Shown here one piece after another: positions 243 through 26,852 of a DNA stretch of 26,852 nucleotides. Each line of letters starts with the position of its first letter. Position 1 is the stretch's first letter. The position numbers and the translations under genes are program-made. Source of the DNA: a virus (lineage: Duplodnaviria > Heunggongvirae > Uroviricota > Caudoviricetes); IMG/VR virus record IMGVR_UViG_2778261537_000020, positions 1-26,852 of that record, one strand, 5' to 3'. Under the pieces are notes generated by a model. That model searched no databases. It was not told the origin of the DNA and saw only the letters and a program-made list of their open reading frames with translations.

Positions 243-910
243 ATGGTGAAATTAATGAAAAAAAACACAGATGATGGGGCTAAAATTTACACACCACTTA
301 CCCTAAAGCTTTATGACTGGTGGGTTTTGGGAGTATCAAATCGGCTTGCATGGGGATGTCCTACAAAGGAACACCTTCTTCCACACTTTCTGGAACATTT
401 AGGTAACAACCATCTGGATATTGGTGTTGGAACTGGGTTTTACCTTACTCACGTACCTGAGAGTAGTCTGATATCTTTAATGGATTTGAACGAAGCTAGC
501 CTGAACGCGGCATCTACAAGGGCTGGGGAATCAAAAATTAAACATAAAATTAACCATGATGTTTTTGAACCTTATCCCGCGGCGTTACATGGTCAATTTG
601 ATTCCATTTCCATGTTTTACCTTCTTCACTGCCTGCCTGGAAATATATCTACAAAAAGCTGTGTAATACGCAATGCGGGCAGGCCTTAACTGACGATGGA
701 ACTCTATACGGAGCCACAATTCTTGGCGATGGAATTGTGCACAATAGCTTCGGTCAAAAACTGATGCGCATTTACAATCAGAAAGGCATCTTTTCAAACA
801 CAAAAGATTCCGAAGAAGGCTTAACACATATACTCTCAGAGCATTTCGAGAATGTTAAAACCAAGGTTCAAGGTACTGTAGTAATGTTTTCCGCTTCAGG
901 GAAAAAATAG
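243..910 (+). pseudogene. ybcY: SAM-dependent methyltransferase (ybcY-like), frameshifted near nt 650-690
   Basis: ORF 243..689 carries a DIGVGTGFY glycine-rich SAM-binding motif; the +1 frame continues plausibly (...TDDGTLYGATILGDGIVHNSFGQKLMRIYNQKGIF...SASGKK*) to a stop at 908-910. Confidence 0.55.
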
Positions 911-2009: not shown

Positions 2010-2600
2010 ATGTCTCGAATTTATGCTTACTGTCGGGTATCAACTCTGGAAAAGACAACCAAAAATCAACGTCGGGAAATCGAAAGTGCAGGTTTTAACA
2101 TCAAATCTCAGCAAATAATTGAAGAACAAATTAGCGGCTCAGCAGCAACCAGTGAGCGTCCTGGTTTTAACCAGTTGCTTGATCGACTGAAAAGAGGTGA
2201 TGCATTGATTGTCACAAAACTGGATCGCCTCGGTTGTAATCCAATGGATATCAGTAAAACGGTGGAACAACTGACCAAAGCAGGTATCAAAGTGCATTGC
2301 TTAGCATTGGGGGGCGTTGACCTGACCAGTCCACCTGGAAAAATGATGATGCAAGTAATTTCAGCAGTCGCTGAATTTGAGCGAGACCTTTTACTTGAGC
2401 GTACTCATTCAGGGATATTAAGAGCACGGGGCGCAGGAAAGCGATTTGGTCGCCCACCTGTGTTAAATGATGAACAAATACAGAGGGTACTAGAGCAAAT
2501 TAAGTCAGGTATAAATATAAGTGACATTGCCCAAGAATTCAAAACCTCGCGGCAAACCATTTTAAGAGCTAAAGCAAAAAATCAGACACCTGATATATAA
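2010..2600 (+). CDS. Small serine recombinase (resolvase/invertase family) with C-terminal HTH
   Basis: 196 aa; N-terminal YAYCRVST (catalytic Ser), resolvase-like core (...[10 protein letters not shown]...), C-terminal ...[40 protein letters not shown]; occupies the pin-like position next to tfa but is not obviously Pin/Gin-like. Confidence 0.8.
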
Positions 2601-4184: not shown

Positions 4185-5683
4185 GCAAGCCTCACAATAT
4201 AGTTAAATGCGATGTTTTTGACGGTGTTTTCCGCGTTACCAGCAGCGTTAACGGTGATGGTGTGTCCATGTGAGCCAATCGCAACCGAGTGCGTATGAGC
4301 ACCAATACCGACAGTATGTGCGTGAGCACCTGCAGATGCAGCTGTGCCGCTGACACTATGAGTGTGCGCTCCTGCAGCACTTGTATTCACACTGGCCGCA
4401 GACACTACCTTATGTACTGACCCATTTTGTGACCACTGGCTGACTGCTGATGCGCCTGTGACACTATGAGTATGGTTTCCGGCACTTGCGGCTGTACCGC
4501 TCACACTGTGCGTATGCGCCCCGATGTTATTCGTGGATTTAGTGCCGTAATCAAACGACGATGTGGTTTTCGTCCCCAAATCCGTACTGGATGCGCTGGC
4601 GCTGTGGGTGTGCGATTTAATGCCGTCCTGTTCCTGAGACAATACGGCCCGACCACTGGCAGGTTTGCCCTTAATCGTCCAGCCACGCATATCAGGGATC
4701 ACGCCTGACGGATAAGCGGCTGCAAGTTTCGGGTATGCAGATTTGTCAAAAGTCTGCCCCTGCATCAGGACATAACCAGACGGAACGGTATCTGATGGCC
4801 ACGGGATTGGTGCACCGACTGGATAAAACTCTGCAGGAGGATGAGCCGAGGTGTAAAGCTGCGCCCACGGCGACCAGTTTGCGTCGGTCGTATCCCGTCG
4901 TGAACGAATAAATGCCGGAGCATGAGCACCGCTTGTACCACTCCAGCCGATGAGTAACTCACCTTCGCCAACGGCTGTCATCCCTTTCAGGTGAATGATA
5001 TTTCCATACGTTGTTGGATATCCGTTGTTATACACCTCGTATAACTCAAGACCTGCTGCCCCCTGCGTATTGTCTGTCAGCGCGGCTACCCGACCTTTTG
5101 AAGCCAGATTAACTGATGATACTGCTGTTCCACCTGACGGTAGCGCCCCGATCTCTGATGCCGTTGGCTTATTTCTGGAGTTATAGTCCCTTCGCCAGCC
5201 AGGTGAATAATCTGTTCCGTGATTAATATAGGTAAACTGGGCGTTGGTTGTTCCGCCACCGCTGGATGTGGTCGGAGTGGTAATGCGGATCGTCATCGCT
5301 GACTTTATCCCCATTACTTCAATGACAGCTCCGGCGAGATGAATATTACCGCAGCCAGTATCAGTAATGATTTTATTATTGCCATAAGACCAGGAACCCT
5401 TGCACATCCAGTATGGATGGTTAAATGCTCCCTGAGAATCCAGCCACTCGATAAACTGTGCAGTCGTCCAGTTTCCTGTTGTTGTGCTTACTGACCCACC
5501 GAAGGCACGGCAGGCACCAATATTTTTCGTAAAGGTGTCTTTGCCAGGGATATCCGCACCGTTCTGATCTTTCTGCAGACGTTTCTCAGCATTGTCATTG
5601 GCTGCTTTTACTGCCTTTGGCGTTGCCGCCAGCGTTTCAGACGTGCTGTTGGTCGCGCTGCTCACCCTTGCGGGCCATGTCAT
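4181..5683 (-). CDS. stf: Side tail fibre protein Stf, distal portion only (5'-truncated by deletion/fusion to H)
   Basis: 500 aa; begins at the internal conserved ...[19 protein letters not shown]... motif and ends ...[31 protein letters not shown] as in lambda Stf; the N-terminal half of Stf is absent. Confidence 0.8.
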
Positions 5684-8162: not shown

Positions 8163-9045
8163 ACCGGACTCCTCCTGCGATCCCTTCTGATACTGTCATC
8201 AGCATTACGTCATCCTCCGTCATGTCCGCCACATCCGGGGAAGCGGGGACATCCGGCGTCCATTTGAGGCCAAACGGCGTCTCTTTGTCGCCAAATTTAA
8301 GATACTGCTCCTCCCCGCAGTGCGGGCAGGCAACATGAAAACGCATAAAATGCGGGGATTCACTGGCTGCACGCTCAATCTGGCAGGTGCCTCTCACTTT
8401 GGGCGTGGAGCCACGGATGGACTTTGGCCAGACCGAGCCTTCAATACGTTTGTCGCCAAGGAACGTCGGAGAGCCTTCCTGTTCAATATCCTCATCAAAG
8501 GCAGCAAGTTCATCATAACCCGCCACATCCACCGACTTTTCACGGTAGTTTTTTGCCGCTTTACCGCCCAGGCACCAGAAGCCACGACCATTGGAAAAAC
8601 GCTTCATAGTGAGCGTGTTATCCCGGTGCTTTTTGCCATACCACGGAGCCAGCGCCAGCAGCGACGGAATATCGCGGATGGTCGGCTCAACGTGGGTTTT
8701 CATAAAGTTCTCGGCATCACCATCCGTCGGCAACCAGATAAGGGTGTTGCGCTGCTTATGCTCTATAAAGTAGGCATAAACACCCAGCAGCATTTTGGAA
8801 TAACCGACACGGGCAGACTTCACCACATTCACCTCACGGATGTAGTCGCTGCCCATCGCATTCATGATGGCCCGCTGAAAGGGCAGTGTTTCCCAGCGCC
8901 CTTCCTGGTATGCGGATTCTTTTGGGAGATAGTAATTGGCATCCGCCCATTCAACGGCGGTCTGTGGCTCCGGCCTGAACAGTGAGCGAAGCCCGGCGCG
9001 GACAAAATGCCGCAGCCTGTTAACCTGACTGTTCGATATATTCAC
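8155..9045 (-). pseudogene. A: Terminase large subunit A, N-terminal ~265 residues then out-of-frame tail (deletion remnant)
   Basis: MNISNSQVNRLRHFVRAGLRSLFRPEPQTAVEWADANYYLPKE... matches lambda gpA up to ...FGLKWTPD, then unrelated 31 aa and a stop 4 nt before the H start; lambda gpA is ~641 aa. Confidence 0.85.
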
Positions 9046-12593: not shown

Positions 12594-13676
12594 ATGAAAA
12601 AATTAACAGTGGCAATTTCTGCTGTAGCTGCATCAGTACTGATGGCGATGTCTGCTCAGGCAGCTGAAATTTATAATAAAGACAGTAACAAGCTGGATCT
12701 ATATGGGAAAGTTAATGCCAAGCACTACTTCTCCTCTAATGATGCAGATGATGGTGATACTACTTATGCCCGTCTTGGCTTCAAAGGTGAAACCCAAATC
12801 AACGATCAACTGACTGGTTTCGGTCAGTGGGAATATGAATTCAAAGGCAACCGCGCTGAATCTCAAGGCTCCTCCAAAGACAAAACCCGTCTTGCATTTG
12901 CAGGCCTGAAATTCGGGGACTACGGCTCAATCGATTACGGCCGTAACTACGGTGTAGCATATGACATCGGTGCGTGGACTGACGTTCTGCCAGAATTCGG
13001 TGGCGATACCTGGACCCAAACAGATGTGTTCATGACTGGTCGCACCACTGGTGTTGCAACTTATCGTAACAACGACTTCTTTGGTCTGGTTGATGGTCTG
13101 AACTTTGCTGCTCAGTATCAGGGTAAAAATGACCGCACTGACGTAACTGAAGCTAATGGTGATGGTTTCGGTTTCTCCACTACTTATGAGTATGAAGGAT
13201 TCGGTGTAGGTGCAACCTATGCTAAATCTGACCGCACTAATAATCAGGTTATCTACGGTAACAACAGCCTGAATGCATCTGGTCAAAATGCTGAAGTATG
13301 GGCAGCTGGTCTGAAATATGATGCGAACAACATCTATCTGGCTACCACCTATTCTGAAACCCAGAACATGACTGTTTTTGGTAATAACCATATTGCCAAC
13401 AAAGCACAAAACTTCGAAGTAGTTGCACAATATCAGTTCGACTTCGGTCTGCGTCCGTCCGTTGCTTACCTGCAATCTAAAGGAAAAGACTTGGGTGCGT
13501 GGGGTGATCAGGACCTGGTTGAATATATTGATGTAGGTGCAACCTATTACTTCAACAAAAATATGTCCACTTTTGTTGATTACAAAATCAACCTGATTGA
13601 TAAGAGCGATTTCACGAAAGCATCTGGCGTTGCTACCGATGATATCGTTGCTGTAGGTATGGTTTACCAGTTCTAA
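12594..13676 (+). CDS. nmpC: Outer-membrane general porin, NmpC/Lc (OmpC/OmpF family), apparently intact
   Basis: 360 aa with signal peptide [30 protein letters not shown]... and C-terminal ...VAVGMVYQF porin signature. Confidence 0.9.
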
Positions 13677-17775: not shown

Positions 17776-19302
17776 TTAGAAATAAATCTCACCATCAACC
17801 ATATATTTGAGAGCACTTATCGCCTGCTGGGCGGATATTACTTTCATTAAAGGATAGTGTTTAAAAACAATGCCATTCATAAAATAGATATCACAGGTTT
17901 TATTATCCGTATTAATTATGATTTTTTCGAATGTTTTATAGGCAAGTGTACGGCATAACTCTCGTCCATTTTTACTGGTTAAGTCAATAGCATAAAAATC
18001 ACTGAATGAATTTACACCTTTACTCTTCAAAGTTTTCAATGATACCGAAGCCCTTCGTAATTCCTTATCTAATAGTCTTATTTTCTCTGCTATAGCGGTA
18101 ACTTCAGGCGCGACAGACAATGCAACGATTAAATTATTAATTTTCATCTGAAGCTCAATAATTTTTAACTCTAAAGTTTCATTAGCATCTTTCTTGTTTT
18201 CAACTGGTTGAATTTTGCTACAATTAAAAAGCAATTCATTAATGATATTATAATCAACCAAATCTCTTTTTATTGATGGCCTGTCACATCGATGTAATCT
18301 TCTCATCGGACAAACATAATAGCCATGCAAACTTCCAGATACCGCATGAACAATCATGGTATTACCACAAGCCTCACACTTCATAACTGTTCGAAGTAGA
18401 TTTATTAGCATAGGATTCTTGCTACTATTGCTAATACCAAAAGGTGCCAACCGAATTTCCTGTACAGCGTAAAACAAATCATCTGATATGACTCTGGGAT
18501 AATAGCCAGCGATTTCACTTATCCCTTTCCCTCTTGCACGATATGAAGGTACGCATATACCTATCAGAGCTTTATTCGCTAATAATTTTTCAATTACAGA
18601 AGGTCCCCATGCACTTTCTTTTCCTGAGAAATTCTTTACAGCATGATCATTTAAATACTTGGCTATTGCATTCAATGAGCGCCTTTCCATCCTGAGTTTA
18701 AAAATTAGCTCAATAGTTTTCACCCTGTCGGGGTCTGGAACAAAAGCCGTTCTTTTGTCATCTAAGGAGAGCCATCTCGGACAAGACGCCGTCATAATCG
18801 TACCTGATTCCAGTGCATCCTGCCGTTTTTTCTTCCATGATAATTTAACCCGACTTGACTTTATCTCGCTTTCTTCATTTGCCCTTTGTGCTATAAGTAT
18901 GGCTTTTATTAATGAATATGGCTCATTCAAAGAGTCAATATTATAGACTGTATGGTCGCAAAGAGTTATAACATCAATACCGTGATTCAAAATCAATTTC
19001 AGACGTTCAATCGCTTCACCGACTTTTTCTCTTGAAAGTCTGTCCAGACTTTCAACTAACAATGTAGTTCCTGGCAATATATAACCATGCTCTATAGCAT
19101 CTAAAAATTCCGAAAAAGCTCCTGATTGTGCATGCTTTCCTTTGAATGCACTTAATCCTAAATCTTCATATGTTATGGTATCAAGATAATAATCACTATT
19201 TACCTTTAACCATTCAGCAATAAGTCTTCTCTGTCGGTTTAATGAGTCGCCAGACATCTGACCTGGTGATGAAAATCGCATATATGCTATGGCTTTTTTC
19301 AT
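17776..19302 (-). CDS. ybcK: Large serine recombinase (YbcK-like): resolvase catalytic domain, recombinase domain, Cys-rich zinc ribbon
   Basis: 508 aa; N-terminal AIAYMRFSSPGQ...SLNRQ (catalytic Ser), ...VESLDRLSR...; later ...KCEACGNTM...YYVCPMRRLHRCD; AT-rich. Confidence 0.85.
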   Translation of the reverse strand: MKKAIAYMRFSSPGQMSGDSLNRQRRLIAEWLKVNSDYYLDTITYEDLGLSAFKGKHAQSGAFSEFLDAIEHGYILPGTTLLVESLDRLSREKVGEAIERLKLILNHGIDVITLCDHTVYNIDSLNEPYSLIKAILIAQRANEESEIKSSRVKLSWKKKRQDALESGTIMTASCPRWLSLDDKRTAFVPDPDRVKTIELIFKLRMERRSLNAIAKYLNDHAVKNFSGKESAWGPSVIEKLLANKALIGICVPSYRARGKGISEIAGYYPRVISDDLFYAVQEIRLAPFGISNSSKNPMLINLLRTVMKCEACGNTMIVHAVSGSLHGYYVCPMRRLHRCDRPSIKRDLVDYNIINELLFNCSKIQPVENKKDANETLELKIIELQMKINNLIVALSVAPEVTAIAEKIRLLDKELRRASVSLKTLKSKGVNSFSDFYAIDLTSKNGRELCRTLAYKTFEKIIINTDNKTCDIYFMNGIVFKHYPLMKVISAQQAISALKYMVDGEIYF

Positions 19303-24782: not shown

Positions 24783-25568
24783 ATGAGTACAGCACTCGCA
24801 ACGCTGGCAGGGAAGCTGGCTGAACGTGTCGGCATGGATTCTGTCGACCCACAGGAACTGATCACCACTCTTCGCCAGACGGCATTTAAAGGTGATGCCA
24901 GCGATGCGCAGTTCATCGCATTGCTGATCGTCGCCAACCAGTACGGCCTTAATCCGTGGACGAAAGAAATTTACGCCTTCCCTGATAAGCAGAACGGCAT
25001 TGTTCCGGTGGTGGGCGTTGATGGCTGGTCCCGCATCATCAATGAAAACCAGCAGTTTGATGGCATGGACTTTGAGCAGGACAATGAATCCTGTACATGC
25101 CGGATTTACCGCAAGGACCGTAATCATCCGATCTGCGTTACCGAATGGATGGATGAATGCCGCCGCGAACCATTCAAAACCCGCGAAGGCAGAGAAATCA
25201 CGGGGCCGTGGCAGTCGCATCCCAAACGGATGTTACGGCATAAAGCCATGATTCAGTGTGCCCGTCTGGCCTTCGGATTTGCTGGTATCTATGACAAGGA
25301 TGAAGCCGAGCGCATTGTCGAAAATACTGCATACACTGCAGAACGTCAGCCAGAACGCGACATCACTCCGGTTAACAATGAAACCATGCAGGAGATTAAC
25401 ACTCTGCTGATCGCCCTGGATAAAACATGGGATGACGACTTATTGCCGCTCTGTTCCCAGATATTTCGCCGCGACATTCACGCATCGTCAGAACTGACAC
25501 AGGCCGAAGCAGTGAAAGCTCTTGGATTCCTGAAACAGAAAGCCACTGAGCAGAAGGTGGCAGCATGA
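24783..25568 (+). CDS. bet: Bet (Red-beta single-strand annealing recombinase)
   Basis: 261 aa [66 protein letters not shown]..., near-identical to remembered lambda Bet. Confidence 0.95.
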
Positions 25569-26245
25569 TACCGGACATTATCCTGCAGCGTACCGGGATC
25601 GACGTGAGAGCTGTCGAACAGGGGGATGATGCATGGCACAAATTACGGCTCGGCGTCATCACCGCTTCAGAAGTTCACAACGTGATAGCAAAGCCCCGCT
25701 CAGGAAAGAAGTGGCCTGACATGAAAATGTCCTACTTCCACACCCTGCTGGCTGAGGTTTGCACCGGTGTGGCTCCGGAAGTTAATGCTAAGGCGCTGGC
25801 CTGGGGAAAACAGTACGAGAACGACGCCAGAACCCTGTTTGAATTCACTTCCGGCGTGAATATTACTGAATCCCCGATCATCTATCGCGACGAAAGTATG
25901 CGCACCGCCTGCTCCCCCGATGGTTTATGCAGTGACGGCAACGGCCTTGAACTGAAATGCCCGTTTACCTCCCGGGATTTCATGAAATTCCGGCTCGGTG
26001 GTTTCGAGGCAATAAAATCGGCTTACATGGCCCAGGTGCAGTACAGCATGTGGGTGACGCGAAAAGATGCCTGGTACTTTGCCAACTATGACCCGCGCAT
26101 GAAGCGTGAAGGCCTGCATTATGTCGTGATTGAGCGGAATGAAAAGTACATGGCGAGTTTTGACGAGATGGTGCCGGAGTTCATCGAAAAAATGGACGAG
26201 GCACTGGCTGAAATTGGTTTTGTATTTGGGGAGCAATGGCGATGA
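25565..26245 (+). CDS. exo: Exo (lambda 5'-3' exonuclease, Red-alpha)
   Basis: 226 aa [64 protein letters not shown]..., near-identical to remembered lambda Exo. Confidence 0.95.
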
Positions 26246-26424
26246 CGCATCCTCACGATAATATCCGGGTAGGCGCGATCACTTTCGTCTACTCCGTTAC
26301 AAAGCGAGGCTGGGTATTTCCCGGCCTTTCTGTTATCAGAAATCCACTGAAAGCACAGCGGCTGGCTGAGAAGATAAATAATAAACGGGAGGCGGTATGC
26401 ACAAAGCATCTCCTGTTGAGTTAA
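26236..26424 (+). CDS. Small ORF downstream of exo (lambda orf60a-like)
   Basis: 62-aa [65 protein letters not shown] overlapping the exo stop, as remembered for lambda. Confidence 0.35.
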
Positions 26425-26852
26425 GAACGAGTATTGAGATGGCACATACCGCCTGTAAAGTGTTGCGTGATCAAATAGGCAAGCATCACAAATGGGTGTT
26501 TGTACATACCAAGGCGGCTAAGCGAGCAGATGGAACATCAACGCCTGCGGTCAGGAAGATGCGCATCGACAGCAAGACATCATGGCTATCAGCTTGTCGT
26601 CGTGCAGGAATTGAAGATTTCCGTTTCCATGACCTCAGACACACCTGGGCAAGCTGGCTGATTCAGTCAGGCGTCCCATTATCAGTGCTTCAGGAAATGG
26701 GCGGATGGGAGTCCATAGAAATGGTTCGTAGGTATGCTCACCTTGCGCCTAATCATTTGACAGAGCATGCGAGGAAAATAGACGACATTTTTGGTGATAA
26801 TGTCCCAAATATGTCCCACTCTGGAATTATGGAGGATATAAAGAAGGCGTAA
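26397..26852 (+). pseudogene. int: Tyrosine integrase, C-terminal catalytic domain only (about 150 of ~390 residues); first ~17 codons resemble lambda orf63, so probably an orf63'-'int deletion fusion
   Basis: ...[47 protein letters not shown]... (R, H-x-x-R and Y catalytic residues); in-frame stop 15 nt upstream of the ATG, so no N-terminal domains in this frame; ORF ends at the window edge. Confidence 0.7.

Follow-up and report, generated by a model that had tools for sequence, protein, structure and literature searches.

The DLP12 prophage of Escherichia coli K-12 lies with argU on one side and with envY, ompT, and appY at its other end, where there is a 47-nt copy of the argU 3′ half (PMC6379469). 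It encodes an IntD-type integrase and carries emrE, ybcK, ybcL, ybcM, rusA, Q, an nmpC-like porin gene, lysis genes, and nohD/Nu1; intD is full length, the cI-gam-bet region has been lost entirely, and so has most of exo. With its intact intD, DLP12 excises in fewer than 1 in 100,000 K-12 cells, and excision is not detectable for the K-12 prophages Qin and CP4-44, which are without a working integrase (PMC3105296). Qin (where intQ is a pseudogene) and CP4-44 are placed in the "grounded" class (PMC6379469). They resemble the prophage described here in having no working integrase and differ from it in site, integrase, and lesion. Bacteriophage lambda has the gene order exo-orf60a-orf63, which is also found here. 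The argU prophage of E. coli SI-NP020 and phage PhiR34_1 are 99.9% identical to the DNA under study over 7.8 kb, from ybcK to the int stop codon, and have the undeleted parental arrangement.

The window analyzed is the whole 26,852-nt stretch of IMG/VR record IMGVR_UViG_2778261537_000020. Its site and att repeat (both read from sibling contigs) and its gene content (from Pfam matches of the window ORFs and from sibling gene tables) identify it as a lambdoid prophage of the DLP12 type, integrated in E. coli at the tRNA-Arg gene argU. The genes include cI, cro, a YdaT-like gene, O, P, ren, emrE, ybcK, ybcL, ybcM, rusA, Q, a porin gene, lysis genes, and Nu1. The window thus has the integrase type and the emrE-to-Nu1 gene set described above for DLP12. 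Unlike K-12 DLP12, it keeps cI, cro, O, P, gam, bet, and exo and has lost xis and int codons 1–253. Two further losses are evident against PhiR34_1, one of ~8.9 kb of head and tail genes with its junction near 8245–8249 and the other of ~8.1 kb of head and tail genes with its junction at 5662/5663. In all, ~17 kb of head and tail genes carried by the SI-NP020 prophage and PhiR34_1 are missing, and terminase A, of which 296 aa remain, is encoded directly next to the tape-measure gene. Counting the int lesion, the prophage has at least three large deletions; it is multiply defective and is grounded by the loss of xis, the int N-terminus, part of terminase A, and head and tail genes.

The right end of the window holds a short ORF composed of the start of orf63 and the end of intD, and its surroundings are laid out as follows.

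25565–26245, + strand: exo, a lambda exonuclease homologue of 226 aa (ORF list; annotated as exonuclease in the 99.9%-identical relatives)
26236–26424, + strand: intact orf60a homologue (DUF1317; Pfam PF07026, positions 1–60 of 60, E = 2.5e-38)
26382–26384, + strand: in-frame TAA, 15 nt upstream of the fusion ATG (read from the sequence)
26387–26392, + strand: GGGAGG, the Shine-Dalgarno sequence of orf63, now serving the fusion ORF (the same bases are present in the intact SI-NP020 prophage)
26397–26852, + strand: orf63′-′intD fusion ORF, 151 aa (ORF list and sequence; the same protein occurs in public assemblies)
26397–26447, + strand: orf63 (DUF1382) codons 1–17 (16 of 17 residues as in lambda, 17 of 17 as in the SI-NP020 homologue; the left arm matches the intact prophage through 26448)
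26446–26448, + strand: deletion junction with 3-nt ATA microhomology (orf63 ...CACATA/GCC and intD ...ACGATA/CCGCC)
26448–26852, + strand: intD codons 254–387 and stop, encoding the last ~60% of the catalytic domain together with the C-terminal tail

A first-pass annotation, made from the sequence alone, had proposed an in-frame orf63′-′int fusion at 26397 that opens as lambda orf63 and continues as a DLP12-type integrase, with an in-frame stop 15 nt upstream. All of these points held. The first 17 residues match lambda orf63 (J02459, 31005–31196) at 16 positions and the orf63 homologue of SI-NP020 at every one, and the fusion start codon is that of orf63. Residues 18–151, beginning with the threonine that is T254 of IntD, are 100% identical to IntD residues 254–387 and to the integrases of Turner, 2G7b, ev243, PhiR34_1, and strain SI-NP020, all of which are intact. 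When a 753-nt DNA query was compared with phage records, its first part (query nt 1–349, window 26100–26448) gave 97–99% matches to lambda-like exo/orf60a/orf63 regions, and its second part (query nt 347–753, window 26446–26852) matched the integrases of Turner, 2G7b, ev243, and several PhiR phages at 100%; no phage record contained both halves side by side. The ~150 bp said to separate the ORF from exo were also confirmed as a distance, the exo stop at 26243–26245 lying 151 nt from the fusion ATG, but this gap is not empty, as it is occupied by the intact orf60a, which overlaps the start of the fusion ORF. Among the recombination genes, exo is the last to remain intact before the fusion ORF.

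Public entries for the exact 151-aa protein (e.g., EEZ6619470.1) are named "DUF1382 family protein". The name covers 11% of the protein. The match spans profile positions 1–18 of 60, at 28.0 bits against a cut-off of 27 bits, and the intact homologue covers positions 1–60. The fusion ORF is not a genuine DUF1382 protein.

Comparison with intact relatives identified the missing DNA. The segment 19000–26852 matches the SI-NP020 argU prophage and PhiR34_1 at 99.9% in two pieces that span 9,886 bp there and 7,853 bp in the window, and about a dozen other complete genomes match it in a similar two-piece fashion, also at 99.9%. Relative to SI-NP020 (locus L005), the deletion measures 2,033 bp; the left flank is identical up to 26448 and the right flank from 26446. 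According to the annotation and Pfam matches of the intact relatives, the deleted interval contains the last 46 codons of orf63, an orf61-like gene, genes for a TraR/DksA zinc-finger protein and a DUF4222 protein, an HTH_17 ORF, and int codons 1–253 (the 5′ 759 nt of the gene). The HTH_17 ORF has 123 codons and overlaps the int start, and it is likely the excisionase (xis-like) gene. Neither Int residues 1–253 nor the xis-like protein gave a tblastn match anywhere in the window in any frame, in agreement with the earlier statement that xis and the arm-binding and core-binding domains are absent. The first-pass annotation had set its reading against a full-length integrase recoverable by correcting one frameshift; no single correction restores int because 2,033 bp are missing, and tblastn finds no Int N-terminus. 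None of the data speak against the deletion itself.

These observations point to a single illegitimate deletion of 2,033 bp in which crossover at the 3-nt ATA fused orf63 codon 17 to intD codon 254. The reading frame happened to be preserved and, because the junction is in frame, the start codon and ribosome-binding site of orf63 head the 151-aa chimera. By analogy with lambda, transcription of the chimera would be confined to the leftward early operon once it is derepressed, as the deletion has removed the stretch in which a lambda-like int promoter would be expected. A consensus scan for promoters and terminators near the fusion gave nothing above shuffled expectation. The locus is very probably the product of this one illegitimate event, which would have left a dead in-frame chimera, and thus an ordinary instance of prophage grounding that has become fixed in one E. 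coli lineage.

The remaining part of the integrase was examined by aligning IntD with solved tyrosine recombinases (HP1 integrase, XerA, an XerC-like protein, and XerD). Three active-site elements persist in the fusion, each assigned from the alignment.

26628–26639, + strand: H-x-x-R motif (H78 and R81, equivalent to IntD H314 and R317)
26706–26708, + strand: Trp at the His/Trp-III position (W104, equivalent to IntD W340)
26733–26735, + strand: nucleophile Tyr (Y113, equivalent to IntD Y349)

The box-I arginine is R215 of IntD (ATGLRKS), whose counterpart in HP1 integrase and in the XerA/XerC-like structures is the active-site Arg; it lies upstream of the breakpoint and is hence absent from the fusion. 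K242 (EESKSNR) is the probable catalytic Lys of the β-hairpin, since it aligns with KSKKNR of HP1 integrase, and it too lies upstream of the breakpoint and is missing. In tyrosine recombinases, both Arg-I and Lys-β are required for cleavage. The Pfam Phage_integrase profile (PF00589) is covered by the fusion only at positions 69–171 of 172, compared with 1–171 for full-length IntD, so the first 40% of the catalytic-domain fold is gone and ~60% is left. The claim that the ORF retains a catalytic domain with its conserved R, H-x-x-R, and Y residues therefore stands for the H-x-x-R motif and the Tyr and falls for Arg-I and for the completeness of the domain. The arm-binding and core-binding domains of IntD, within residues 1–253, have been deleted, and the ORF does not have the makeup of a lambda-type heterobivalent integrase. 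Judged by its sequence, the fusion ORF falls outside the active tyrosine recombinases, as it is without Arg-I, the probable Lys-β, the full fold, and the N-terminal domains. Because Arg-I, the probable Lys-β, and the DNA-binding domains have been lost, the chimera is predicted to be inactive as a recombinase, unable to bind att sites or cleave DNA, and would be a pseudogene remnant.

The window stops at the int stop codon, and the attachment site was therefore read from sibling contigs. There, tRNA-Arg(UCU) argU begins 15 nt past the int stop and is followed by fimZ, which makes it the DLP12 site. A perfect 47-nt copy of the att core lies between envY and ompT, ~3 kb to the left of window position 1 (contig L007), and both copies are intact in the sibling genome. 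In the free phages Turner and Kati, the part of attP that is also present in the chromosome consists of the spacer and the argU 3′ half up to the anticodon loop. A 47-bp repeat has been described for DLP12 (PMC6379469), and the 47-nt copy matches it. With xis and int codons 1–253 deleted, the prophage should be unable to excise itself. The description of the prophage as locked in the chromosome can be retained for self-excision but is too strong otherwise; both att copies are intact, and therefore helper IntD and Xis supplied by another phage could in principle excise it.

The distribution of the junction was established by exact-protein look-up. The 151-aa protein occurs on 59 contigs (125 index blocks), the longest of 4.79 Mb, and its gene is always followed by argU and then fimZ; GCA_900478675.1 and GCA_049209275.1 are among the assemblies that carry it. 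The junction was present in the three NCBI assemblies examined (L006, L007, and L008). Relative to the window, L007 has 6 differences in 10,456 nt, and L008 has none in 2,087 nt. The window-type junction was in none of 5,426 complete RefSeq E. coli genomes, and the exact junction 39-mer had no match in IMG/VR or in the GTDB representative genomes, so its spread is known mainly from draft assemblies. The junction marks one E. coli lineage. No published account of the fusion or of the breakpoint was found in the literature.

The int side of the junction has a wider distribution than the fusion. The same end, TA/CCGCCTGTAAAG (int nt 757–758), is common to at least five junction types with different left ends, the others having been mapped against the intact phages PhiR29_1, Kati, and PhiR34_1.

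Window type: left end in orf63 codon 17; deletion of 2,033 bp; microhomology ATA
13P484A type: left end in orf60a codon 12; deletion of 2,210 bp against SI-NP020 or 853 bp against K-12; microhomology TA or TACC
L009/L010 type: left end in a yfdQ-like gene; deletion of 2,434 bp; microhomology TAC
L018 type: left end in a yfdP-like gene; deletion of 3,347 bp; microhomology TA
L017 type: left end in the iteron region of O (O/ori); deletion of 7,037 bp; microhomology TACC

The 13P484A type, found in 19 of the 5,426 complete RefSeq genomes, is like the window in its argU site, its int breakpoint (TA/CCGCC), and its 405-nt int 3′ end, and unlike it in having a left end 177 bp further upstream and an out-of-frame junction that yields no fusion protein; its remnant is annotated by PGAP as an integrase pseudogene.

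This recurrence raises the alternative that the deletion arose not by random slippage but through a process that prefers the TA at intD nt 757–758. Examples would be strand transfer by a site-specific recombinase, either abortive or at a pseudo-site, and end joining after a site-specific nick. Five junction types share a single int-side end although they differ in their left ends, and the early regions of the prophages differ as well; two int alleles are represented, that of the L018 type differing from the others by 4 SNPs. Three of the five types were met without any search for that position, and the other two were found by a pattern anchored on this site, which weakens the count. In a survey of about 120 IMG/VR loci with an int 3′ end, aimed at no single position, int was full length at 109, and nt 759 was the only breakpoint to be repeated (4 loci, 2 junction types); nt 151 (an IS5-like end), 161, 285, and 882 were each seen once. 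The microhomologies also favor a preference for TA. The nt 161 junction joins exo codon 9 to int at TACC, the nt 285 junction has TA, and the exo′-int deletion of K-12 DLP12 has TA as well, so that, with the five types at nt 759, eight junctions in this region all cross at TA. The shared bases start with TA in each of them except the window's ATA, and at nt 759 they begin at the T of the hot-spot TA in every type but that one. The two head and tail deletions of the same window do not cross at TA.

Against a directed process, the events are few, the sites share no recognizable motif apart from TA and a weak preference for CC, resemblance to the att core is slight, the nearby hairpin is unexceptional (z about −1), no reciprocal junction was found, and other int truncations are IS-associated or lie elsewhere. 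Such a process is a tentative explanation for the deletion in the window, short of even chances. The broader proposition, that this TA is a preferred crossover at which a TA-specific process has repeatedly and independently removed xis and the 5′ part of int, is a shade less probable and must be regarded as doubtful.

Several specific causes of the TA breakpoint were considered and rejected. Hairpin-driven slippage was suggested by GCGCCA...TGGCGC 9 nt upstream, but the fold is no better than that of shuffled sequences on either strand. An IntD pseudo-core site has only a 4-nt likeness (ACGA) to the att core beside the anticodon-loop TA. For a Din-family invertase (gix/pix-like) site, one half-site resembles CCTGTAAA by eye, but the crossover position does not fit. 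An IS-mediated origin was discarded, with no IS sequence at any TA junction; elsewhere, IS-associated int truncations include IS1 at nt 833, ISEc8 at nt 421, and the IS5-like end at nt 151, and an IS3-family end lies ~14 nt downstream of the hot spot in another truncation. Selection for a retained element as the cause of the exact breakpoint was rejected because both shorter and longer int remnants exist. The motif comparison covered 11 sites; no reciprocal junction, with the int 5′ part joined elsewhere at the same TA, occurred in IMG/VR, and a scan of a single metagenome for junctions other than the intact one at the hot spot found nothing.

A selected function for the fusion is much harder to sustain. 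The protein might be maintained as a minimal integrase with a complete catalytic domain or as a dominant-negative blocker of related integrases, and the in-frame junction with a native start codon and ribosome-binding site, the retained Tyr, H-x-x-R, Trp, and C-terminal tail, and the presence of the allele on many contigs are all compatible with this. Against it stands the loss of Arg-I, the probable Lys-β, and all DNA-binding domains. Chance alone places about one-third of junctions in frame, and sister deletions at the same int nucleotide (the 13P484A, L009, and L017 types) are out of frame or antisense, with equivalent remnants annotated as pseudogenes by PGAP; the many contigs are explicable by clonal descent because they are near-identical. 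A selected working protein is consequently very improbable, although the fragment may have some noncatalytic role, such as interference with a related Int. The last reading, that an error of sequencing or assembly or else a simple frameshift hides a recoverable full-length integrase, is refuted: the artificial-looking end of the window exactly at the int stop codon is due to trimming in the manner of a provirus at gene boundaries (the final base is common to many IMG/VR loci), and independent NCBI assemblies carry the junction, the protein is on 59 contigs, and 2,033 bp rather than one base are absent, with no tblastn match to the Int N-terminus in any frame.

A single illegitimate deletion thus remains the preferred account of the locus, and the fusion is a new allele of a well-known lesion, prophage grounding through xis-int loss. 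The orf63′-′int junction provides a precise, PCR-testable marker of one E. coli lineage, and the fusion flags "DUF1382 family protein" as a database name that hides an integrase remnant. Were the dominant-negative version true, the fragment would stabilize the prophage or exclude phages that use the same site. Loss of int is one more route by which a DLP12-type prophage becomes a fixed part of the chromosome, and taken alone it matters little. Of all the features described, only the recurrent TA breakpoint might justify more work. If a directed process does act there, grounding of the argU-site prophage family would be recurrent and mechanistically directed rather than random decay, and the breakpoint would bear on prophage domestication and on why integrase remnants of one length are common beside argU.

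At least five different deletions end at a single int-side point, the TA immediately preceding CCGCCTGTAAAG at nt 757-758 of intD (numbered on the full-length integrase gene). The prophage backgrounds that carry them differ and two int alleles are represented, and the left ends lie in different genes:

window 26446-26448: left end in orf63
L002 (a further locus) 4171: left end in orf60a
L009 (strain with another deletion) 6036: left end in a yfdQ-like gene
L018 (strain with another deletion) 6514: left end in a yfdP-like gene
L017 (strain with another deletion) 11039, minus strand: left end in O/ori

Three more deletions of the exo-to-int segment likewise have a TA crossover:

L003 (K-12 DLP12 locus) 3172: exo'-int junction, microhomology TA
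L128 (a further locus): exo codon 9 joined to int nt 161, microhomology TACC
L098 (a further locus): deletion junction at int nt 285, microhomology TA

TA was present in the microhomology of all eight mapped int-side junctions (the five at nt 757-758 and these three), forming its first bases in seven of the eight. Comparison with phage PhiR34_1, an intact relative, revealed two further large deletions in the window, and the TA crossover is absent from both of these head/tail junctions:

window 8245-8249: ~8.9 kb deletion from terminase A to the tail T/H region, leaving terminase A with 296 aa
window 5662-5663: ~8.1 kb deletion from the 3' end of tape-measure gene H to the side tail fibre gene

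Insertion sequences interrupt intD in other strains (L011 1-70, L026 790-1500, L028 1-1500, and L107). One is an IS3-family element, probably IS629, whose end lies ~14 nt downstream from the TA hot spot. IS1 cuts the gene at nt 833 and ISEc8 does so at nt 421, while at nt 151 there is an IS5-like end.

Elsewhere in the window, two serine recombinase genes are intact, and an uninterrupted porin gene occupies the position of nmpC; the nmpC of K-12 is disrupted by IS5.

window 17776-19302, minus strand: ybcK, 508 aa, with Resolvase, Recombinase, and zinc-ribbon domains
window 2010-2600, plus strand: Pin-type invertase, 196 aa, adjoining the tail-fibre genes
window 12594-13676, plus strand: porin gene (Porin_1), 360 aa, between Q and the lysis genes

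Both window ends are gene boundaries: position 1 is the start of a tail-fibre-assembly remnant called in another locus (L023), and position 26852 is the int stop codon, the common terminus of many IMG/VR loci. The window thus has the appearance of a provirus call whose ends were trimmed to gene limits, a step that would have removed the att site. At the left margin, the deposited PhiR34_1 genome stops at the base corresponding to window 944 (region 944-1140), and the argU-derived att core is absent from both of its ends. A methyltransferase-like ORF (window 243-689, within 1-943) appears truncated or frameshifted; it falls within the att-bounded element, as do appY and ompT further left (L022, which covers that side).

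The NCBI name for the product of window 26397-26852 is "DUF1382 family protein," even though 134 of its 151 residues belong to integrase; the DUF1382 match spans 18 residues and exceeds the Pfam cut-off by 1 bit. Where other strains carry an equivalent remnant, its annotation is that of an integrase pseudogene. In intact relatives, the int start is overlapped by a 123-codon HTH_17 ORF (9996-10367 in L005, the intact argU-site prophage of E. coli SI-NP020). At this locus, the PGAP call is limited to a 63-nt partial HTH pseudogene, and phage records carry a 56-aa ORF in a different frame. The 123-codon ORF is likely the excisionase of the intact relatives, and it falls within the interval that the window has lost.
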